IMG/VR virus record: IMGVR_UViG_2585427777_000024
Coordinates: 1-11,395 of that record
Reading direction: 5' to 3' (one strand)
DNA length: 11,395 bases
Source of the DNA: a virus
Taxonomy: Duplodnaviria; Heunggongvirae; Uroviricota; Caudoviricetes
This document shows, one piece after another, positions 1,238-11,395 of this stretch; position 1 is the stretch's first letter, and each line of letters begins with the position of its first letter. A program made the translations under genes and the position numbers. The notes beneath the pieces were generated by a model, which was not told the origin of the DNA, ran no database searches, and saw only the letters and a program-made list of their open reading frames with translations.

Positions 1238-1453
1238 TCATGAGTCTTTGATAAACTGATTTATCTTTGGATAGTTGTACCAGATAATCCCTCGTTTGCT
1301 GTCTGGCTTACCTAAAGGAGATACTCGTTTGAAGTGGAAGCCCTCCACCCAACAGTTCTGGCGGTATGCTTCAATTTGTCTGGCCCCCAGACCAGTGCGA
1401 AGCATCAGGCCGTATTCAACCATCCACTCTTCATTAAAGATTACTTGTGCCAT
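1238..1453 (-). CDS. xisR: Excisionase-like small protein (YdaQ/XisR), 71 aa
   Basis: ORF immediately upstream of int on the same strand. Start chosen at the internal ATG (1453) preceded by AGAGGTGA with a 4-nt spacer; the longest ORF extends to 1477 (79 aa). Confidence 0.7.
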
Positions 1454-1531
1454 CGCATCACCTCTGGCAGGCGCCAATGTTAGACTGAAATTGACGCCCG
1501 ATGTTGATTATTAATAATCAGCTATGAAGTT

Positions 1532-1741
1532 TTAATTTGAATACAATGCAATTCTCGAGGACTGAAGTTTCTCGCAATTAAAATTTATCAGTTTTACTTT
1601 CTGCTCTCTGGAAACGCCTGCTTCTTTTTTACCTGAGAGCATTTTTTCGCATTCTGATTTCGTTAGTTTAGATTTTGAATATCTTGTCCAGTTAGTAGGA
1701 GTGCCACCTTCCTTTTCAATAGTGGCGGTAATTTTATACAT
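1532..1741 (-). CDS. ydaC: Small prophage protein YdaC-like, 69 aa
   Basis: Start chosen at the ATG preceded by GGAGGTG with a 5-nt spacer; this ATG overlaps the ralR stop (ATGTATAA). The longest ORF (93 aa, to 1813) would overlap ralR extensively. Confidence 0.65.
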   Translation of the reverse strand: MYKITATIEKEGGTPTNWTRYSKSKLTKSECEKMLSGKKEAGVSREQKVKLINFNCEKLQSSRIALYSN

Positions 1742-1928
1742 GAACACCTCCATTATTATTTCCAGTGGTTCGTTTATTCCATCTTTCGAGTGCTTCTTTT
1801 TCACTTCCACCATAACCGGTTCGGGATTCGCATCCGTTACACTTCGCTCGGTAATATCCTGAAATGGCTTTCACCGTTACTGATGGACAACCACAAAATG
1901 GACATGGTTTAACATTGTCATATCTCAT
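1734..1928 (-). CDS. ralR: RalR/Lar restriction-alleviation protein and type I toxin (DNase), 64 aa
   Basis: Translation MRYDNVKPCPFCGCPSVTVKAISGYYRAKCNGCESRTGYGGSEKEALERWNKRTTGNNNGGVHV matches recalled Rac Lar/RalR, including Cys-rich zinc-ribbon-like motifs. In-frame upstream ATGs give 68- or 77-aa alternatives. Confidence 0.85.
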   Translation of the reverse strand: MRYDNVKPCPFCGCPSVTVKAISGYYRAKCNGCESRTGYGGSEKEALERWNKRTTGNNNGGVHV

Positions 1929-1984
1929 AATTTTTCTCATAAAAAATATTTCAAGTTGGCGGTGCATTACACCGCCAGGCTGAA

Positions 1985-2794
1985 TTATTCCTCTGAATTA
2001 TCGATTACACTGTATTCCCCGGTTAATACAGAGGAATCTGCAGGATCGATTGTCAGTGGTTCCTTTTCATCCATTGATACTGCACGCTGGATCTCAATTG
2101 ATACGGGCAGATATTTGAACAGGCGACGAATAGCCGTTTTCTTTGCCATTTCTTCCCAGTGAGTTACCCACGGCCCGTTATTACCAGCTTTACTCAGGCT
2201 GCGCACCAGCTCAATCTGTTTGCGCGTCATAACTTCAAACTGAGTACCTCCGTCTTTCAGTCTTGCGACAGCATAGACGTGGGTAACCGGGGCATCTTCG
2301 TTTTCTCCCGGGCGGTGTATTAACTTTTCATCAAGGCCAAATTCGAAGCTAAACTCGTCACCTTCACGGACAACACGGGCTGACAGGCTGGCGATTTGAC
2401 CAGAACGGCGAGCCAGATCAATCATGCCGCGATAGCCAATGATTAGCTGAACGTTCTTTTTACCGCTCTTTTCGTTTTTATTACCAAAAGGCAGTAAATA
2501 TGCATGACCGAGGGCGCTACCTGGCTCAAGTCCGAGCTGTGAACACTGTACGATCGCACTGACAAAACTCATAGTGTCACAGTTTCCTAACGCCGGAACT
2601 TTACGAATTTCTGTGGTGGCGATACGGATCATACGTTCAGCCGTCATATGGCGTGGAAGAGCTGCTGCCAGTTGCTCTTTCATTGATGGCTGGTTAATAA
2701 AACTAATCACGTCGCTATTTTTAACTGCTGCTGGTGCACGGTTTCCCTGAGTTTTTTGCAGATCGGCTTTTGCGATTGGTGGTTGCTTAGTCAT
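1985..2794 (-). CDS. recT: RecT single-strand annealing protein, 269 aa
   Basis: Translation from [16 protein letters not shown] matches recalled RecT. AAGGA lies 8 nt upstream of this ATG. The start overlaps the recE 3' end by 8 nt. Confidence 0.95.
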
Positions 2795-5387
2795 TTGCAT
2801 ATTCCTTAGCCCAGCGGGGCAGTGATAATGTCTTAATAGCTGGCCATTCATCGGTATTCAGGCAGTCAGACAGGGTTCGCAGATTGCGGTGATATTCCTG
2901 TTGACCTGCCAGTTTTGCTTCTTCGCCCATCATGAAAATTTCAACCGGATAACGTCCGCATTCAATAGTTGTGCTGGCAACCAGAAAAACGAAAGTTGGC
3001 TGCACTCCAAACTGTGCTTCATAACCGTCACTGTAGAATGCATCCTGAACGTGATAGCGGTAGTCGTAATAAGCGGTTTTGAATCGTTGAATATCCGCCG
3101 TAGTTTTCACGTCCATGATCCAGTGAAATTCAGGGATAATTTTGTCCGGACGGCACCGACACAAAATTCCTGTTTCAGGATCTTCCCAGTAAATTGATGA
3201 TTCAGCGTGTCCGGCGCTTTCAACAAGCCATTGCCCCAGCGGCAAAGCCATAACGCTTTGATACATGAGTTCAATTTTCCGGTCTTCTTCCGCAGTGATA
3301 ACCGTTTTTCCTGTGCTTGCGCATTCCATCAGAAACGCTTTCTCTTCTTCTTTTCCGGCGTTTGTACGGCGGTTAAATTCAGGTGCTACGATAAAGCGGT
3401 TACTGAATTCTTCCGGTTCAAGTACCCGGCAGTGGAAAGCAGTTCCTAAATCGAGCGTTTTTGTCTTTGTGGTGTCCACGGGGGCATTTTTACGCCACAA
3501 ATATAGTGCCGGAGTATCAGCAATGTCATCGAGCTGAGACTTACTGATACCGGGACCCGCGTGGTAATTCTCATTCGAAATTCTGTAATAAATACCTGGC
3601 TCTATGTCTTCTACGATTACGGGATCTGCGACTTCGCCAGTTTCATCACTGCAATCGCGATGCGGATCGCTGCCAGCATTCTCATTGTGCGGATGTTCAG
3701 CGCCTTCCATTTCCTCCGGATCATTTTCCTTAGCTTCAACCTGACTCTTTTCATCGAATGTTTCCTGGTATGTTGCGTCGCCCATCACCGCACCACAGTC
3801 AGGGCAGTTATCCCCGCCAGTCTGGCCGCAGGCATTGCAGGCTATTTCCGGTTCCTGTTGCACTACTGGCTCAGGTTGATTCATATCTGGGCTGGTTTTT
3901 TCCGTTTCTGGCTGGTTCTGGTACACACAATCGCGAGTCTGGATCCCCTTTACCCATTTCGGATCGTTCGGGTCGCTAATTCCGTCAACAAATTCACCAC
4001 GTGATGCAGCAAGCAATTTATCGGCATCGACAGGATTTTTTGATGGAATGTTTTTCCGGGCTTCATGGAGTTCTGCCCGCAGTTCCTGATATTTCGCATC
4101 AACAGAATTTACCTGTGACTGAGCATCCAGCGGCTGCGTGTCCTGATGATGTTCAGTTGCGTCCGGTTCCATTGTTTCAGCCTCTCCCTGTTCAACTGCC
4201 GTTGTTCCAGATGGTTGCGGTTTTTCTTCATCATCCTGTTTTCCTTCTTCTGTTACTCGCTGCGGCATCGGGGCAGAGGAGCGACCGCAGGCAATATCCA
4301 CGATTTCCGGATCAGGGTTGGCATGATCGGTTTCAGTCAGTACTTTGTTCAGATATTCAGTGACGTGCGCGGGGATGACCTCGATCCCAATTGGTGCTTC
4401 TTTTACGGACGCAACCACGATGGCGCGGGAATAATCCAGCCCGCCAGGCATGGTGATGAATTTGTCGCGGAAAACAGAAAAGGGCGGTTTATTTTCAGCG
4501 ATAATTTCCTCAATGCGTTTAGCGTGTGCCGGATGAAGGTTATAGATGTCCAGATCCATTGAACGGGCCAGTACGCCAGTGGCTACGTCGCGCGCCAGTG
4601 ACGTCAGATCGTGTACGAAACCTTCGCCGCGATCGGTGAGGTTTCCGCCGCCAGCATTAGCACCGGAAGCCGTGCGAGTGATGTGTGAAACACGATTACC
4701 CTTCATCCATTCTTTTGTCAGCAGTCCTCGATCGGTGTAGTCAGCGTTCAGGTATGCTTCGAAAAAAGCAGTTATCAGTCCCAAGTTTGAATTACCAGGA
4801 TTAGGGAAAACTTTGTCAGTGTCACGAACCAGTTTGTGGAGTTCGCGAATTTCCAGCGGGTCGAGCAGGCTGGTTTTGTGGGAAACAGCCAGGGCAGTAA
4901 CAGCCGGTAGTTCTTCAGCCCGAGCAATGTGTAATGCCTGGAGTCCGTCGCGTGAAACGTGCGTTACCGGTTTTTCGCTGCCGTGTTGAGCAAGCCAACG
5001 AATGGGCAGTTCCTGGCCAGAAATTGGGAGTAGCATATTCTCCTCAATCTCAGTCATGTCTTCGCCGTTGACGTTGGTATTGCCTTGATAGTGAGCGTTG
5101 TCTGGTGCTGCTCCCGGTTTTAGTTCCCATGTCATGGAGTCTTTGCTGAGTTGATAGCGTTCACTCCAGGTAAAATCGATCTCACCTTCAGCGGGCAGGT
5201 CATTAACGACAGGAAAATTCGTGGCAACAGCTTTAAAATAGCTGCTCAGTTTTTTACCTGACTTAACGATCAGGTAGTCCAGAGTGGCACAGGTCGATTC
5301 AAAATCGTTGCTTGCCCACAGGACGACGTCAGGTTCACCGGATGATTTTTTCGCTTTCCGTAACAGGAAGAGTGGTTTTGTGCTCAT
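2787..5387 (-). CDS. recE: RecE exonuclease VIII, 866 aa, full length
   Basis: Uninterrupted 866-aa ORF; N-terminus [14 protein letters not shown] and C-terminal nuclease domain recognised as RecE. No frameshift or internal stop. Confidence 0.95.
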
Positions 5388-5460
5388 TGTTTTTTAACCT
5401 CAACTCAGATTAAAATTCGTTTTGTTCAGTGAATGATCTTGCCGGATACACACTGTTCAT

Positions 5461-5481
5461 AGCCTGCGCCATACGCAGGCT
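5461..5481 (-). other. Perfect 8-bp-stem hairpin (AGCCTGCG-ccata-CGCAGGCT) between racC stop and recE start
   Basis: Seen directly. On the transcribed (minus) strand it sits 7 nt after the racC stop and is not followed by a U-tract, so it is not a canonical intrinsic terminator in that direction. Confidence 0.5.
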
Positions 5482-5488
5482 ATTTCTT

Positions 5489-5764
5489 TCAGATTTCACC
5501 TTTTAATTTCATTGCAATTAGAGTTGCCAGAAATTCGGCTTTTTTTTCTGCGGGCAGATTCTTTCCGATATGCACCAGGCACATTTTTTTGACACCTTCA
5601 TCAAGTGTTTTTACGTTGCCTGATGGACCATCGATATCAACCACAGTGAATGGGGTTTCTTTATTTTCTGTTTTAATTACGTAGCCAATGCGCTTTCCTT
5701 CCAGATTCACCTCGTGAACAATGTCATCGGTAGTTACAACAGTGGCTTCATAATTGGTAATCAT
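5489..5764 (-). CDS. racC: RacC, 91 aa
   Basis: Translation from MITNYEATVVTTDDIVHEV matches recalled RacC. The ATG at 5764 is preceded by AAGGAG. The longest ORF extends to 5812 (107 aa). Confidence 0.85.
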   Translation of the reverse strand: MITNYEATVVTTDDIVHEVNLEGKRIGYVIKTENKETPFTVVDIDGPSGNVKTLDEGVKKMCLVHIGKNLPAEKKAEFLATLIAMKLKGEI

Positions 5765-5838
5765 GTTTTTCTCCTTAATTAAGGTTGAGCGAATACCTGC
5801 CATTTCTGGCATAAATTCAGTTTCGAATAGTCAATTAA

Positions 5839-6009
5839 TTAAAGTTCATGTGCCATCTGGTCTTTTTCGGCACAAGCTTCACTGCAATATTTTCTCGGTT
5901 CGTCTTTTGATAAAATCCCGTGCATGAAGTGAAGCATTCTTTCAATAGCTTTGCTTTCTTCAACGTCTTTTTTGCAAAGGTGGTAAGCACATTTTATTTT
6001 CTTAGTCAT
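5839..6009 (-). CDS. ydaE: YdaE small Cys-rich (zinc-binding-like) protein, 56 aa
   Basis: Not in the supplied ORF track (<60 aa). Manual translation gives [56 protein letters not shown]. The start overlaps the kilR stop by 1 nt (TGATG). Confidence 0.75.
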   Translation of the reverse strand: MTKKIKCAYHLCKKDVEESKAIERMLHFMHGILSKDEPRKYCSEACAEKDQMAHEL

Positions 6010-6230
6010 CACCATGACTCCGCCTTTACAGGTAAACCATCACGACCGAGGAAGACTTTAATCATGCGGTCAGTAATGCTTGTTTTTGTGGTCAGGTTAC
6101 GAATATATAGTTTTCGCTTTTTAATATTGTTTGCCGAGGCAATATATGTCCGGCCTTCATGAAGAACATAATCGCCAGGAGTCACACACTGACGTGGTAT
6201 TTCATCAGTTCCGAAGTGATGTGCAATCAT
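6009..6230 (-). CDS. kilR: KilR cell-division (FtsZ) inhibitor, 73 aa
   Basis: Translation from [29 protein letters not shown] matches recalled KilR. The ATG at 6230 is preceded by GGAG with a 6-nt spacer. The longest ORF adds 4 codons. Confidence 0.85.
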
Positions 6231-6401
6231 AATTATCTCCATTTTTACAAATGAACTTTGTTGATGCGGTGCCTGGTGCCTCCAGGTGACTGCAACCAGT
6301 TAACAATTACAGTCGGCTTTCCCACCCAAACCAATAAGGACTAACATGACTTTTAACTGTGCCACGTGCGCTTAGCCGCATTCACCGCATCACAAAATTC
6401 A

Positions 6402-6453
6402 CTTTAAAAAGGGCGGACATCAGCCGAACTTCAAGAAAAAAACTGATGCCGCC
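6402..6453 (-). terminator. Terminator-like stem-loop on the minus strand, ~170 nt upstream of kilR
   Basis: Inverted repeat GGCGG(A)CATCAG ... CTGATGCCGCC (11 bp, one bulge, 19-nt loop). On the minus-strand RNA the stem is followed by C-UUUUU-AAAG. On the plus strand there is no U-tract after it. Confidence 0.4.
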
Positions 6454-6671
6454 AGGACTACACACAGCAATGTCGTTATTTACAACCGGAGGCGCACTCC
6501 CACCATTTAAATTTAACAGACAAGACCGACTCTTTATGGATATCGGAAATGCGCCTTCGTGTTGTGCCCGGTTTTATTTCACCACCTCCGGGCTTCGGTG
6601 GTCTCGGCTATACCCCTACAGCGAGAGCTTGTGTTAACATTTCAATACCCTTACAGTTGAGAGTTATTGAT

Positions 6672-7160
6672 ATGTTGGATGTATTTACTCCATTGTTGAA
6701 ACTTTTTGCTAACGAGCCACTCGAAAGACTTATGTATACGATTATCATTTTTGGTCTCACTCTCTGGCTGATACCGAAAGAGTTTACTGTCGCATTCAAT
6801 GCTTATACTGAAATACCTTGGCTCTTTCAGATTATCGTTTTTGCCTTTTCTTTCGTGGTCGCCATTTCCTTCTCAAGATTGCGAGCACATATTCAAAAGC
6901 ATTATTCATTACTACCAGAGCAACGAGTATTGCTTCGTTTATCTGAGAAAGAAATCGCTGTATTTAAAGATTTCCTTAAAACAGGAAATCTTATTATCAC
7001 TTCTCCTTGCCGTAACCCGGTTATGAAAAAATTAGAACGGAAGGGCATCATTCAACATCAGAGTGATAGCGCAAACTGTTCTTATTATCTCGTCACCGAA
7101 AAATACTCCCATTTTATGAAGTTATTCTGGAACAGCAGGAGTAGACGTTTTAATCGTTAG
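6672..7160 (+). CDS. sieB: SieB superinfection-exclusion protein, 162 aa, membrane
   Basis: Translation from MLDVFTPLLKLFANEPLERLMYTIIIFGLTLWLIPK (hydrophobic N-terminal half) matches recalled SieB. The longest ORF begins 41 codons upstream (6549); that extension looks non-coding (Pro/Gly-rich). Confidence 0.8.
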   Translation: MLDVFTPLLKLFANEPLERLMYTIIIFGLTLWLIPKEFTVAFNAYTEIPWLFQIIVFAFSFVVAISFSRLRAHIQKHYSLLPEQRVLLRLSEKEIAVFKDFLKTGNLIITSPCRNPVMKKLERKGIIQHQSDSANCSYYLVTEKYSHFMKLFWNSRSRRFNR

Positions 7161-7312
7161 CTTACTGTGTGCTTCTCCAACCATCGGCGCGCACCAGTTT
7201 CGGTTTTAAATGTTTTGCTTTTGGTATACGTCATGGCAGTGAACGTTCCATCCTGGTTGGGAAACACGCCGTACACCAGAGATTCGTTGTTGCCAAGATC
7301 GATAGTATCCAT
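7157..7312 (-). CDS. ydaF: YdaF-like small protein, 51 aa (alternative 78-aa form starting at 7393)
   Basis: Convergent with sieB; stops overlap by 4 nt. The internal ATG at 7312 is preceded by GAGGTCAGC; the upstream ATG at 7393 also has a GAGG 9 nt ahead. Identity is by synteny plus recalled length. Confidence 0.55.
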   Translation of the reverse strand: MDTIDLGNNESLVYGVFPNQDGTFTAMTYTKSKTFKTETGARRWLEKHTVS

Positions 7313-7397
7313 GCTGACCTCATTTCCCCTTAACGCCGGGGTAGCGGAACAAAAACCTGCTGCATAGTTATTAAAGTTGAACCCTGCCGTCATGTTC

Positions 7398-7535
7398 TTA
7401 CGCCTCGGGCTGGCTACTTAACCCCTGACCACTGCCTGGTAACTCGAAGTATTGCCCTGCGTTCTGTGGGGCGGGGTGGGTTGGTAGGTATATAATGTAC
7501 TTTGTGTTCATTGATGTAAAGTACTTTAAGTACAT
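7398..7535 (-). CDS. Small ORF of 45 aa (37 aa from second ATG at 7511), possibly ydaG by position
   Basis: Manual translation MYLKYFTSMNTKYIIYLPTHPAPQNAGQYFELPGSGQGLSSQPEA. No convincing SD. The stop lies 4 nt before the ydaF 78-aa start. Called by synteny only. Confidence 0.3.
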   Translation of the reverse strand: MYLKYFTSMNTKYIIYLPTHPAPQNAGQYFELPGSGQGLSSQPEA

Positions 7536-7536
7536 T
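7494..7536. promoter_or_regulatory. Inverted pair of AATGTACTT motifs with a central GTACTT-T-AAGTAC palindrome, just 3' of racR
   Basis: AATGTACTT at 7494-7502 (+) and its reverse complement at 7528-7536. The same ATGTACT core recurs twice in the racR-ydaS intergenic region. A TATAAT hexamer sits at 7491-7496. Confidence 0.4.
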
Positions 7537-7610
7537 TTGTGTGTAAAAAAATGAGATGGGATAAAGTGAAGCACAAACCCGGAGGGGGACGCTACCGGAT
7601 TTATGCTGGT

Positions 7611-8030
7611 TTAAGAGGCTTTTTGTTTTTTCTTTCGTGCTAGCTCTTCGTAAATTGCATTGTACTTCTGTTTTTTCTCCTCAAGAGTTTTTAAAAGTTC
7701 ATCTGTCTCACTGTCAGGGAGCTCGTCCAGAAGGTCAATGATGATTTTTTGTCTTGGATTTAACTCCTGATAGAAACGTACCTGTCCACTTTCTTCTGTA
7801 TCCTCTCCCAAAAGATAGGTTGGTGTTGTTCCAATGAGTGTTGCTAATTCCCTTAATTTCTCTCGGCGAGGAATTGTTTCGCCATTAAACCATTTGCTAA
7901 CCGCTTTTGGTGTTAATTTCATTCGACGGGCAATTTCTGCCTGCCTTCCATGTTGTTCATAACCAGCGTTTTCACAGGCTAGCGCAAGCCTACTGGCGAA
8001 CTCTTTACGCGCTTTATCTTCATGAACCAT
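7611..8030 (-). CDS. racR: RacR-type prophage repressor, HTH (XRE/CI-like), 139 aa
   Basis: The N-terminus has an HTH-like segment (QAEIARRMKLTPKAVSKWFNGETIP). Divergent from ydaS, as cI is from cro. No in-frame upstream ATG or GTG before the stop. Confidence 0.8.
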   Translation of the reverse strand: MVHEDKARKEFASRLALACENAGYEQHGRQAEIARRMKLTPKAVSKWFNGETIPRREKLRELATLIGTTPTYLLGEDTEESGQVRFYQELNPRQKIIIDLLDELPDSETDELLKTLEEKKQKYNAIYEELARKKKQKAS

Positions 8031-8109
8031 AAGTTCAATGATATTCGCTCTTGAATGTACTGTCAGTTCTGTTATAGCATGTACTCAAAGTTCACATTGT
8101 GAGGGTGAT
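8031..8109. promoter_or_regulatory. racR-ydaS divergent control region with two direct ATGTACT repeats
   Basis: ATGTACT at 8055-8061 and 8079-8085 (24-bp spacing). Candidate -35 TTGAAT (8051-8056) and -10 TATAGC (8073-8078) for ydaS. Strong SD GAGGG 5 nt before the ydaS ATG at 8110. Confidence 0.5.
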
Positions 8110-8364
8110 ATGAACCAGAAAACACTTGAAGATGTAATCAAAACTGTTCGCGTTTCTGTTGTGGCCGACGTTTGTGGTGTCAGCCAAAGAGCAATCTACA
8201 AATGGATGGATAACGGAAAATTGCCTCGCACAGAATATACCGGCGAAACAAATTACGCTGAAAAAATCGCTCATGCATCAAACGGATTATTTTCTGCTGA
8301 TGTAATTTTAACTATTGGCAGAAATAAAACTACTACGAAAAAGCTGATGGGAGTTGATTCATGA
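8110..8364 (+). CDS. ydaS: YdaS Cro-like HTH protein, 84 aa
   Basis: Start at 8110 (GAGGGTGATATG). The longest ORF (from 8038) would begin only 7 bp from the racR start, leaving no room for divergent promoters. HTH-like segment VADVCGVSQRAIYKWMDNGKLP. Confidence 0.8.
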   Translation: MNQKTLEDVIKTVRVSVVADVCGVSQRAIYKWMDNGKLPRTEYTGETNYAEKIAHASNGLFSADVILTIGRNKTTTKKLMGVDS

Positions 8365-8783
8365 AAATCAAGCATGAGCACATCGAGTCAGTGTTGTTAG
8401 CCCTGGCAGCCGAAAAAGGGCAGGCATGGGTAGCCAATGCCATTACTGAAGAATATCTGCGCCAGGGGGGCGGCGAATTGCCCCTGGTACCAGGCAAGGA
8501 CTGGAATAATCAGCAGAATATCTATCACCGTTGGTTGAAAGGTGAAACGAAAACGCAAAGAGAAAAAATTCAGAAGCTGATCCCAGCAATTCTGGCAATC
8601 CTTCCGCGCGAGCTGCGTCACCGACTCTGCATCTTCGATACCCTGGAACGCCGTGCATTACTGGCGGCGCAGGAAGCGTTAAGTACGGCAATTGATGCGC
8701 ATGATGATGCAGTCCAAGCCGTTTACCGGAAAGCGCATTTCAGCGGCGGCGGGTCTTCCGACGATTCTGTCATTGTTCATTAA
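8361..8783 (+). CDS. ydaT: YdaT (CII-like, toxic when derepressed), 140 aa
   Basis: Start overlaps the ydaS stop (ATGA). Position and size fit Rac ydaT. Confidence 0.8.
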   Translation: MKIKHEHIESVLLALAAEKGQAWVANAITEEYLRQGGGELPLVPGKDWNNQQNIYHRWLKGETKTQREKIQKLIPAILAILPRELRHRLCIFDTLERRALLAAQEALSTAIDAHDDAVQAVYRKAHFSGGGSSDDSVIVH

Positions 8784-8795
8784 GCAAAAGTTTCC

Positions 8796-9653
8796 ATGCT
8801 GTTTGTGCTTATTCTAAGCCACCGGGCAGCATCATACGGGGCAATTATGGCCGCATTACCATACATGCAACTGTACATAGCTGATTACCTGGCTGACACC
8901 ATGCATTTGTCAGCAGAGGAGCATGGTGCGTATTTGTTGCTGATGTTCAATTACTGGCAAACAGGAAAGCCAATACCTAAAAACAGGCTGGCAAAAATTG
9001 CCCGTCTGACTAACGAGCGATGGGCTGATGTTGAACCATCCTTGCAGGAGTTTTTTTGCGATAACGGCGAGGAATGGGCGCATCTTCGGATTGAGGAAGA
9101 TCTGGCATCAGTCAGGGAAAAATTAACCAAAAAATCAGCCGCAGGAAAAGCATCTGTTCAGGCCAGAAGAAGCAGAAAGGAAGCAGATGTTCAAACAAAA
9201 CAAGAGAGAAATTTAACAGGTGTTCAAACAGATGTTGAAGTGGTGTTTGAACATGATGTCAACACAAAGGCAACTAATAAAGATACAGATAAAGATCTAA
9301 AAACAGATCCCCCCCTAAATCCCCCCCGGGGGAATCGAGGTGTCAAAAAGTTTGACCCTCTGGATATTGCTTTGCCGAACTGGATTTCTGTCTCGCTTTG
9401 GCGTGAGTGGGTTGAATTTCGCCAGGCATTGCGAAAACCGATTCGAACGGAGCAGGGCGCTAACGGGGCGATACGGGAGCTGGAAAAATTCCGCCAGCAG
9501 GGTTTTTCACCTGAGCAGGTGATTCGACACAGCATCGCCAATGAATACCAGGGCTTGTTCGCGCCGAAAGGTGTTCGACCTGAGACGTTACTCCGACAGG
9601 TTAACACCGTCTCGTTACCGGATAGTGCGATCCCGCCAGGCTTCAGGGGGTAA
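8796..9653 (+). CDS. ydaU: YdaU replication-initiator (lambda O-like) protein, 285 aa
   Basis: Full ORF; a possible alternative start is at 8847 (ACGGGG 5 nt upstream). Contains internal iteron-like repeats and a Pro-rich linker, as in lambda O. Confidence 0.8.
   Translation: MLFVLILSHRAASYGAIMAALPYMQLYIADYLADTMHLSAEEHGAYLLLMFNYWQTGKPIPKNRLAKIARLTNERWADVEPSLQEFFCDNGEEWAHLRIEEDLASVREKLTKKSAAGKASVQARRSRKEADVQTKQERNLTGVQTDVEVVFEHDVNTKATNKDTDKDLKTDPPLNPPRGNRGVKKFDPLDIALPNWISVSLWREWVEFRQALRKPIRTEQGANGAIRELEKFRQQGFSPEQVIRHSIANEYQGLFAPKGVRPETLLRQVNTVSLPDSAIPPGFRG
9184..9335. repeat. Candidate prophage replication origin: iteron-like TGTTCAAACA repeats, an AT-rich stretch, then C7-TAAAT-C7-G5 homopolymer tracts
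   Basis: TGTTCAAACA at 9188-9197 and 9221-9230, inverted copy TGTTTGAACA at 9244-9253, partial CAGATGTTGAA at 9229-9239. AT-rich 9262-9300. C and G runs at 9309-9332. All lie inside ydaU. Confidence 0.45.
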
Positions 9654-9659
9654 CTGACC

Positions 9660-10622
9660 ATGAAAAATATTGCGACAGGCGACGTTCTTGAACGTATCCG
9701 CAGACTGGCCCCGTCACATGTAACCGCGCCATTCAAGACGGTAGCGGAGTGGCGCGAGTGGCAACTTTCCGAAGGCCAGAAACGTTGTGAGGAGATCAAC
9801 CGTCAGAATCGTCAGTTGCGGGTGGAAAAAATTCTGAATCGCTCTGGCATCCAGCCATTGCACCGCAAATGCTCGTTTTCGAATTACCAGGTGCAGAACG
9901 AAGCGCAGCGATACGCGTTGAGTCAGGCGAAATCCATCGCTGATGAACTGATGACCGGGTGTACAAATTTTGCGTTCAGCGGAAAACCTGGTACCGGGAA
10001 GAACCACTTAGCGGCAGCTACTCGCGGCCTTAATAAGAAAAACTCTAAGCCGACAATAATCAATAAAGATTACAGTGTAGATACACTACTATCAGAGCTA
10101 TTTTTGAATGGCGCACACATGGAGCAACCCAACGTACACAACGTTTCTGAGGGAAACATGAAGTTCTATGATGAATGCCATGCTGGATTAATCAGACCAA
10201 TACCCGCTCCAATAGGCGCGTCATACGATGAAGAGATCACAATTAATTCTCCAGATTGGCAAAAGCTCGCGTGTGTAGCTTTACGCCGCTATCAGTCGAA
10301 GGAATGTCATGACGGAATGCAATGGGATACAACCGATCATGGTTGGACTGATGTAATCGCGTATCCATTCGTCGAAGAAATACAATCAATGGATAATAGT
10401 GGTTATCGACAATGTTTAGTTGGGCTGGTCACAATAAACAATTCAAATGCAAATTCTCCGTACCTATCTACCGTTTGGATACATCCATTTTATCGCAGGA
10501 GAGGGTTATTAAGTAAGTTATGGCCAAAATTACAAGAGTTATATGGAAGTAACTTCGAAATTGAGCGACCTAATGAAAATATGAAAGCATTTCTGAAAAG
10601 TGCGAAACACGCAGATTACTAA
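9660..10622 (+). CDS. Chimeric ORF, 320 aa: N-terminal ~120 aa of a DnaC/IstB-like helicase loader (YdaV) through the P-loop GKPGTGKN-HLAAA, fused in frame to ~200 aa of unrelated AT-rich sequence
   Basis: N-terminus MKNIATGDVLERIRRLAPSH... recalled as Rac YdaV. After HLAAA (about 10017-10022) the protein has no Walker B or sensor motifs. Hand-counted 60-bp samples give ~52% GC before the junction and ~37% after. Confidence 0.7.
   Translation: MKNIATGDVLERIRRLAPSHVTAPFKTVAEWREWQLSEGQKRCEEINRQNRQLRVEKILNRSGIQPLHRKCSFSNYQVQNEAQRYALSQAKSIADELMTGCTNFAFSGKPGTGKNHLAAATRGLNKKNSKPTIINKDYSVDTLLSELFLNGAHMEQPNVHNVSEGNMKFYDECHAGLIRPIPAPIGASYDEEITINSPDWQKLACVALRRYQSKECHDGMQWDTTDHGWTDVIAYPFVEEIQSMDNSGYRQCLVGLVTINNSNANSPYLSTVWIHPFYRRRGLLSKLWPKLQELYGSNFEIERPNENMKAFLKSAKHADY
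10158..10622 (+). CDS. Possible independent gene inside the chimeric ORF: 154-aa GNAT-like acetyltransferase candidate
   Basis: Internal ATG at 10158 preceded by GAGGGAAAC. Motif YLSTVWIHPFYRRRGLLSKL resembles GNAT motif A (beta4-alpha3, R-x-x-G-x-G/A-like), but the region after the motif is shorter than typical. Assignment is by eye only. Confidence 0.35.
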   Translation: MKFYDECHAGLIRPIPAPIGASYDEEITINSPDWQKLACVALRRYQSKECHDGMQWDTTDHGWTDVIAYPFVEEIQSMDNSGYRQCLVGLVTINNSNANSPYLSTVWIHPFYRRRGLLSKLWPKLQELYGSNFEIERPNENMKAFLKSAKHADY

Positions 10623-10733
10623 TTTATGAATCAGTCTGTGGAGTTAGAGTTGGTGTGAACAAGTAGGGTAAGAGCCTCAACGTGATGCTATGCCGACCTG
10701 CTCCCTGAGAATTCACACAGAAGGCTGCTAGCA

Positions 10734-11024
10734 ATGTCTGCAGATCGCTCAAAGCGGACTAGAAGGTTAGCTTGCGTCGGACTTGGCGTATTTAAAGAAG
10801 TGCTGGTGGTGACTGGTTGTTGTGTTCCATTTCTACAGAACAAAATCACAGAAACTATACCCAATAGTTGTATCTCATCAATGATGAGACAGCCTCATAT
10901 TTATCAGGACTGGTGTACGTCCAATACAGGAGGTTGTCGTGCTGGTTCTCAAATGTGCGCTGGCTATTGCAGCTGTAATGGCAATTTATTGTCTTGCTGT
11001 TGTTCTTATGGATCGCTTTTCTGA
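10734..11024 (+). CDS. Hypothetical 96-aa ORF with a Cys/Gly/Ser-rich C-terminus (12 Cys)
   Basis: The only long open frame in 10623-11035 (open from 10686). Weak SD. The Cys-rich tail overlaps a better-supported +1-frame hydrophobic peptide and has T-rich first codon positions, so at least the 3' part may be non-coding. Confidence 0.25.
   Translation: MSADRSKRTRRLACVGLGVFKEVLVVTGCCVPFLQNKITETIPNSCISSMMRQPHIYQDWCTSNTGGCRAGSQMCAGYCSCNGNLLSCCCSYGSLF
10873..10889. promoter_or_regulatory. 17-bp perfect palindrome TCTCATCA-A-TGATGAGA
   Basis: Seen directly. It lies ~40 bp upstream of the AGGAGG SD at 10928-10933. The 1-nt centre argues for a dimeric protein-binding site rather than an RNA hairpin. 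Confidence 0.4.
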
Positions 11025-11028
11025 TTGA
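10939..11028 (+). CDS. Candidate 29-aa hydrophobic (single-TM-like) peptide, GTG start: (M)LVLKCALAIAAVMAIYCLAVVLMDRFSD
   Basis: Consensus SD AGGAGG (10928-10933), 5-nt spacer, GTG at 10939. First codon positions are G-rich (13 of 29), unlike the overlapping frame. It ends 8 bp before the hok promoter -35. Confidence 0.35.
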   Translation: MLVLKCALAIAAVMAIYCLAVVLMDRFSD

Positions 11029-11035
11029 TTTTATA

Positions 11036-11064
11036 TTGGCGAGGTAACGGGAGTTAAGTAGAAT
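11036..11064 (+). promoter_or_regulatory. Candidate hok/mok mRNA promoter: -35 TTGGCG, 17-bp spacer, -10 TAGAAT
   Basis: Hexamers at 11036-11041 and 11059-11064. The predicted start (~11071) precedes GCTTGAGGCT, which resembles the 5' end of plasmid R1 hok mRNA as recalled. Confidence 0.4.
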
Positions 11065-11124
11065 GGCTGCGGGTGCTTGAGGCTATCTGTCTCAGGCATG
11101 AACACCAAAGGCAGATAGAGAAAA

Positions 11125-11226
11125 GCCCCAGTTAACATTACGCGTCCTGCAAGACGCTTAACATTAATCTGAGGCTCAATCTATGAACGGCAAATCTAGG
11201 TTAGCCTCTTACGTGCCGAAAGGCAA
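11125..11226 (-). ncRNA. Candidate Sok-like antisense RNA with its promoter (-35 TTGCCT at 11226-11221, -10 TAACCT at 11203-11198), antisense to the mok translation-initiation region
   Basis: Inferred from hok/sok architecture and weak promoter hexamers with 17-nt spacing. The RNA 3' end was not located, and no clear terminator was found. Confidence 0.3.
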
Positions 11227-11395
11227 GGAGAAGCAGGCTATGAAGCAGCAAAAGGCGATGTTAATCGCCCTGATCGTCATCTGTTTAACCGTCATAGTGA
11301 CGGCACTGGTAACGAGGAAAGACCTCTGCGAGGTACGAATCCGAACCGGCCAGACGGAGGTCGCTGTCTTCACAGCTTACGAACCTGAGGAGTAA
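11183..11395 (+). CDS. Mok-like reading frame, 70 aa, in-frame N-terminal extension of Hok
   Basis: ATG at 11183 preceded by GAGGCT with an 8-nt spacer. The 70-aa frame is co-terminal with hok. Confidence 0.5.
   Translation: MNGKSRLASYVPKGKEKQAMKQQKAMLIALIVICLTVIVTALVTRKDLCEVRIRTGQTEVAVFTAYEPEE
11240..11395 (+). CDS. hokD: Hok/Gef-family type I toxin, 51 aa, sequence of HokD (RelF)
   Basis: MKQQKAMLIALIVICLTVIVTALVTRKDLCEVRIRTGQTEVAVFTAYEPEE matches recalled HokD/RelF. AAGGAG lies 9 nt upstream. The window ends at its stop codon. Confidence 0.9.
   Translation: MKQQKAMLIALIVICLTVIVTALVTRKDLCEVRIRTGQTEVAVFTAYEPEE

Follow-up and report, generated by a model that had tools for sequence, protein, structure and literature searches.

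A GNAT-like reading frame in a Rac-type prophage is most probably the in-frame stump of a larger cargo gene

Positions 10158-10622 of the 11,395-nt stretch of prophage DNA analysed here (the window) were read in the original prediction as a small GNAT-like acetyltransferase gene with its own ribosome-binding site, and perhaps as a toxin. Is this a gene in its own right, or a piece of another one? We consider it very probable that the segment is the 3' end of a decapitated gene without a start of its own, a recent and most likely inert deletion remnant. The apparent gene with its own ribosome-binding site would then be corrected to the in-frame stump of a larger gene.

The window, a Rac-type lambdoid prophage adjoining ttcA, carries intR, xis, lar, recT, recE, kilR, sieB, a gene for a cI-like repressor, ydaT and ydaU (DUF1376). 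It matches a contig of the E. coli assembly GCA_000713855.1 at 100% over 11,395 of 11,395 bases. The open reading frame that contains the candidate, 9660-10622, has 320 codons and is a chimera that joins the YdaV N-terminus (codons 1-120) to residues 134-333 of WP_000354966.1 (codons 121-320). Its parts are the following.

9660..10018, + strand: ydaV', the DnaC-like helicase-loader gene of the Rac-type prophage reduced to its first 120 codons, the 3' half deleted
10019..10020, + strand: deletion junction with a 2-nt microhomology, the TA common to both parents in a three-way DNA alignment
10020..10622, + strand: cargo-gene tail, codons 134-333 and the stop codon of WP_000354966.1 / phrog_16994, in frame with ydaV'

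ydaV' extends through the Walker A loop (GKPGTGKNHLAAA) and is 99.4% identical to the ydaV fragment of E. coli LR-28. NCBIfam PRK12377 matches it at positions 1-126 of 248 (E 6.7e-70), a match that stops just past the Walker A loop, and the DnaC model PRK07952 also matches. The cargo-gene tail holds the entire GNAT-like domain, preceded by the linker and by the last two strands of the native N-terminal domain. At the DNA level it matches LR-28 at 100% and UTI89 at 98.9%, the gene being intact in both strains, and phrog_16994 is matched at positions 180-333 (E 1.1e-112). At the join, ydaV reads GCGGCAGCTA followed by TCGGG, the cargo gene reads AAATCGTTA followed by CTCGCGG, and the window reads GCGGCAGCTACTCGCGG. 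Relative to LR-28 (locus L001), exact-string mapping finds 2,368 bp missing from the window. The deletion took ydaV's 3' half, the genes for the DUF1627 and DUF977 proteins, the whole 320-aa HEPN gene that directly precedes the cargo gene, with its upstream spacer, and cargo codons 1-133. A break had already been sensed near 10020, and it is real, lying at 10019/10020. An illegitimate deletion across the 2-nt microhomology beheaded the cargo gene, and the remainder fell by chance in frame with ydaV codon 120.

None of the 5,426 complete E. coli genomes contains the 10019/10020 junction. Independent assemblies in NCBI, ENA and Logan supply 15 near-identical contigs that encode the chimeric protein, so that the event is real and lineage-restricted and no assembly artefact, and the confinement of the junction to near-identical contigs points to a recent one with no sign of selection. 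As the remnant carries no stop or frameshift and is 100% identical to the intact allele, its decay is read from architecture and not from mutations. Because ydaV is broken, the prophage of the window would be replication-defective. The Rac prophage of LR-28 bears another deletion, of about 8 kb, running from xis to the 3' end of ydaU (L001 3093-3110 against window 1423-9487), and retains an intact cassette despite it. The different deletions in LR-28 and the window indicate that this cryptic prophage decayed independently in two lineages.

The gene that was cut is intact in UTI89, in LR-28 and in 209 of the 5,426 complete E. coli genomes, and is borne by mobile elements of Gammaproteobacteria. 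Its 333-aa product, WP_000354966.1 (phrog_16994), has two domains: a P-loop-NTPase-like alpha/beta domain without a Walker A loop (residues 1-146) and a minimal GNAT fold (residues ~175-333). Both are conserved across the family, whose 66 close homologues come from Enterobacterales, Aeromonas, Shewanella, Marinomonas, Idiomarina and others and are ~330 aa long except for fragments. A tblastn search of the sequenced phage genomes in INPHARED gave no match, and neither the 333-aa protein nor the 154-aa segment has a match in PADLOC-DB v2 at E of 1 or below. WP_000354966 is mentioned in no paper that we found, and we found none on a HEPN+GNAT prophage system. The 333-aa gene of E. coli SF-173 is interrupted by an IS1A insertion (L002 5180-5877); PGAP calls the 3' fragment there a 'GNAT family N-acetyltransferase' and annotates the intact gene only as a hypothetical protein.

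How far, then, does the likeness to GNAT enzymes go? The segments that bear on this, and on the proposed start, are these.

10143..10619, + strand: GNAT-fold domain, native residues ~175-333, comprising alpha1, a short beta1, alpha2, beta2-beta4, alpha3, a short beta5 and alpha4
10149..10160, + strand: candidate 'SD + ATG' (GAGGGAAACATG), which codes for Glu-Gly-Asn-Met180 of the native protein
10461..10520, + strand: motif A region YLSTVWIHPFYRRRGLLSKL, from beta4 to the start of alpha3, located by alignments, Pfam and the RibT match

The resemblance stands beyond chance at the level of the fold, where structure prediction finds the GNAT alpha/beta arrangement, and is only borderline at the level of Pfam. 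An AlphaFold2 model of the intact 333-aa protein, built on a 41-sequence alignment, has a mean pLDDT of 89.7 and a pTM of 0.83. Pfam Acetyltransf_1 scores 21.4 bits with the 154-aa segment and 19.9 bits with the 333-aa protein against a gathering score of 20.7, over profile positions 42-91 of 116 only, a match that takes in the motif A region. That region lies at 10461-10520, as originally described, and within it W286, H288, P289 and R292 show little or no variation among family members. Where the canonical acetyl-CoA pyrophosphate loop at beta4-alpha3 is R/Q-x-x-G-x-G/A, the window has R-R-R-G-L-L; across the family the Arg never varies, about 8 of 41 members lack the Gly, and none has G/A at the last position. 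The best sequence match in the PDB, RibT (5xxr_A, E 0.0022), aligns at the motif A region, and none is better than E 0.002. The best structural matches of the domain are ATAT-2 (8y9f_C), SSAT2 (2bei_A) and ESCO1 (4mxe_B). A likeness of alpha1-beta1-alpha2 to ribosomal protein bS18 was set aside as chance (about ten weak PDB matches at E 0.08-1.4; hhalign probability 1%).

With the GNAT superfamily the domain shares the core alpha/beta fold, an 'HPxYRxxG' motif A rightly placed at beta4-alpha3 and an Asn-x-x-Ala-Phe motif at alpha4. It differs in having 10-20% identity to any solved GNAT, in the Leu that ends motif A, in the unique N-terminal domain fused to it and in the absence of the C-terminal beta6/beta7, which are missing from the model, with all family members ending 5-15 residues past alpha4. 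On the strength of the model, the domain is a genuine but highly divergent and atypical GNAT fold, with predicted acetyltransferase activity. The native protein would be an acetyl-CoA-dependent N-acyltransferase whose Walker-A-less N-domain recognises or regulates the target, and its genomic context suggests that it may act in phage-host or inter-element conflict, possibly together with a HEPN RNase.

The elements on which an independent gene was proposed are all present: the ATG at 10158-10160, a GAGGG at 10149-10153, 4 nt upstream of it, and 154 codons to the TAA at 10620-10622. Within the 320-codon frame, however, this ATG is codon 167, an internal in-frame Met equivalent to Met180 of a two-domain protein, and it is unconserved, occurring in 7 of 41 aligned family members. 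The claim of an own ribosome-binding site and a 154-aa product is not borne out. The putative Shine-Dalgarno sequence codes for Glu-Gly, residues that vary freely in the family. Of the 409 ATGs in the window, 30 (~7%) have an SD core of 4 nt or more lying 4-10 nt ahead of them, as have 4 of the 53 internal in-frame ATGs of long reading frames. Against this background the one at 10149-10153 is not beyond chance. We saw no promoter-like site between 10019 and 10157. An independent gene would show a conserved start and ribosome-binding site that is not internal to another reading frame, and 10158 shows neither the conservation nor the position.

Should this ATG be used all the same, it would yield a 154-aa stand-alone GNAT enzyme equivalent to natural free-standing members of the same clade. 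Such members exist. Among 1.84 billion representative proteins, a profile search with 448 hits brought up homologues of 150-172 aa that consist of the C-terminal domain alone (E 1e-70 to 1e-20, profile positions ~177-330). Their existence makes the GNAT domain an autonomous evolutionary module and means that an isolated domain can be a working protein; the use of 10158 as a start does not follow from it. Their N-termini lie about 5-13 residues upstream of the Met180 equivalent, close to the proposed start, and the domain sequence in the window is intact, but the 154-aa product would lack part of helix alpha1 compared with these natural forms. Together with an ATG buried in a translated frame and a GAGGG of a kind that is common by chance, this makes a stand-alone enzyme unlikely in our view. 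The segment is better read as the tail of the cut gene.

The free-standing homologues are informative in another respect. In four of six informative contexts the small gene follows closely on a replication gene of primase or helicase type, immediately in L032, L033 and L062 (overlapping it in L032 and L033) and one gene away from a DUF3631 protein in L063; in the fifth it follows dnaG-rpoD, and the sixth has no replication gene. That the clade recurs behind mobile-element primase or helicase genes gives a hint of a target linked to replication. The sample is small; the homologues in L032, L033, L035, L062 and L063 measure 157-169 aa. An origin of the native N-domain from the primase or helicase that precedes them was tried and rejected (hhalign probability 0.1%). 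Together, phrog_16994 and its free-standing relatives form an uncharacterised GNAT clade that is very divergent and occurs on mobile elements only.

In E. coli the native upstream neighbour of the 333-aa gene, absent from the window, encodes a 320-aa protein (UTI89, L003 3625-4587). Its homologues have HEPN_RES_NTD1 and RiboL-PSP-HEPN domains, and two of them reach 36.1 and 28.5 bits with PF18735, whose gathering score is 28.4. With its invariant Rx4H motif (R-x4-H-R, RNxLVHR; R258 and H263 invariant) the protein is a candidate RNase. It is unrecognised by PADLOC-DB v2, which returns only chance-level matches. The HEPN gene comes first and the 333-aa gene second in E. coli, in a fixed cassette whose 15-nt spacer is constant in E. 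coli, Serratia, Aeromonas and 21 of 25 IMG/VR loci. Of the 209 complete E. coli genomes with either gene, 205 have both, and the pair also occurs in Serratia grimesii, in 21 of 25 IMG/VR loci and in an Aeromonas caviae island. The cassette sits between the prophage replication genes (DUF977) and hokD. In UTI89 the 190-bp spacer upstream of it contains, as read by eye, a perfect TTGACA and TGGTATAAT; this spacer is lost from the window. In APEC O78 a DUF5677 gene (phrog_27456; L036 2384-3409) occupies the DUF977-hokD slot instead of the cassette, which marks the slot as a variable cargo hotspot.

The relaxase-bearing island of A. caviae (L022-L025) holds the HEPN+GNAT pair at 86% and 79% identity, next to a divergently oriented SIR2 and cREC_REC gene pair, a defence-island-like context. 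A HEPN homologue of 71% identity is found on its own in a P4-like satellite (L028-L031), a kind of element known as a defence hotspot. An obligate partnership with the HEPN gene was rejected: Rahnella-type loci and all relatives of 62% identity or less have the 333-aa gene by itself, and the neighbours of these solitary genes, Rahnella-type and more distant, are unrelated. Nor is the CbeA gene upstream in Rahnella (L006) a dedicated antitoxin gene, as it is not repeated in the equally close L057.

In HEPN-MNT toxin-antitoxin pairs, a HEPN protein with an Rx4-6H motif is encoded beside a group-transfer enzyme, and the MNT enzyme controls the HEPN protein by AMPylation. The intact cassette offers a possible analogy, in that a HEPN gene again lies beside a gene for a putative group-transfer enzyme. 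Here, however, that enzyme is of GNAT type instead of a nucleotidyltransferase, the genes stand in another order, the HEPN subtype (RiboL-PSP, HEPN_RES_NTD1) is a different one, and each cassette gene also occurs alone. AcrVA5, an anti-CRISPR GNAT that acetylates Cas12a, is likewise a small mobile-element GNAT used in conflict. It is tempting to speculate that the intact cassette of HEPN protein and Walker-A-less P-loop-like domain-GNAT protein is an undescribed conflict module, for defence or of the toxin-antitoxin kind, in which the acetyltransferase controls or complements the HEPN RNase by acetylation; by analogy this may be so, but we rate it a doubtful proposition. Were it true, the window would hold an orphaned, N-terminally truncated modifier left behind after deletion of the toxin gene. 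The intact cassette, for example that of UTI89 or APEC O1, is a reasonable candidate for work on phage defence or toxin-antitoxin systems, and the window copy is not.

The wider suggestion was that the product is a type II toxin of the AtaT/TacT/ItaT type, acetylating aminoacyl-tRNA, with an antitoxin that is unconventional, downstream or lost. GNAT fold and carriage on mobile elements are shared with these toxins, helix alpha2 (WQKLACVALRRYQSK) is conserved and basic, and an upstream partner has indeed been lost, since the HEPN gene was deleted. The remark that no RHH/DUF1778 antitoxin frame lies upstream holds for the whole window and extends to the intact loci, where the neighbours are the HEPN-type gene, ArdA-RadC/CbeA, DUF4400, polA, an HTH gene and others. 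This speaks against the toxin reading, as do the two-domain form of 333 aa, the acidic character of the protein and the absence of any sequence relationship, similarity placing it outside the monophyletic AtaT/TacT/ItaT clade. On context, sequence and architecture we reject the assignment, and any such role is highly improbable. The fold proposed at the outset is thus upheld, and the gene model and toxin class are not. With the RNA cytidine acetyltransferases TmcA and NAT10 there is an analogy of architecture only: the N-domain here is ~146 aa without a Walker A loop, DUF1726 and a tRNA-binding domain are lacking, as is any similarity in sequence, and many AAA+/STAND/ORC matches score higher.

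It is scarcely credible, finally, that the in-frame YdaV'-GNAT fusion is a selected neo-protein in which the DnaB-binding N-terminus of the loader tethers an acetyltransferase to the replicative helicase: the frame is intact in all 15 contigs, and free-standing clade members do follow replication genes, but an in-frame join has a one-in-three chance, the near-identical contigs are its sole carriers, and the AAA+ fold of YdaV is cut just after Walker A. As a deletion remnant, the segment would be without its partner, its N-domain and its native spacer, could be made only as a YdaV'-GNAT fusion upon derepression of the early-right operon, and would most likely be functionless.

What lies downstream had also been considered as a partner, with a functional link proposed to 10623-11035. 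The features are these.

10623..10744, + strand: 3' flank of the cargo cassette up to its right border, delimited by genome counts
10939-11028, + strand: 29-codon reading frame from GTG 10939 to a stop at 11026-11028, encoding the hydrophobic peptide MLVLKCALAIAAVMAIYCLAVVLMDRFSD
11071-11395, + strand: hok/sok type I toxin-antitoxin locus (Rfam sok RF01794, 110 bits, 11071-11245)
11240-11395, + strand: hokD coding sequence, with a longer in-frame reading frame from 11183 that is mok-like

The right border of the cassette falls near 10745. The segment 10630-11060 is present whole in only 219 genomes, and 10745-11060 occurs in 1,767 of the 5,426 E. coli genomes, most of them without the cargo gene. 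It belongs to a widespread hokD module and not to the cargo gene, and the proposed functional link finds no support. The 96-aa reading frame at 10734-11024 has no match in Pfam, PHROG or PADLOC, and 10623-11035 was rejected as a partner on this and on its overlap with the common hokD-upstream module.

Within that module, in the hokD-upstream segment of some 1,767 E. coli genomes, a perfect AGGAGG (10928-10933) stands 5 nt before the 29-codon reading frame. The product may be a small membrane protein or else a type I toxin-like peptide; a few NCBI records (KHD40115.1) list a 34-aa version under the name 'membrane protein'.
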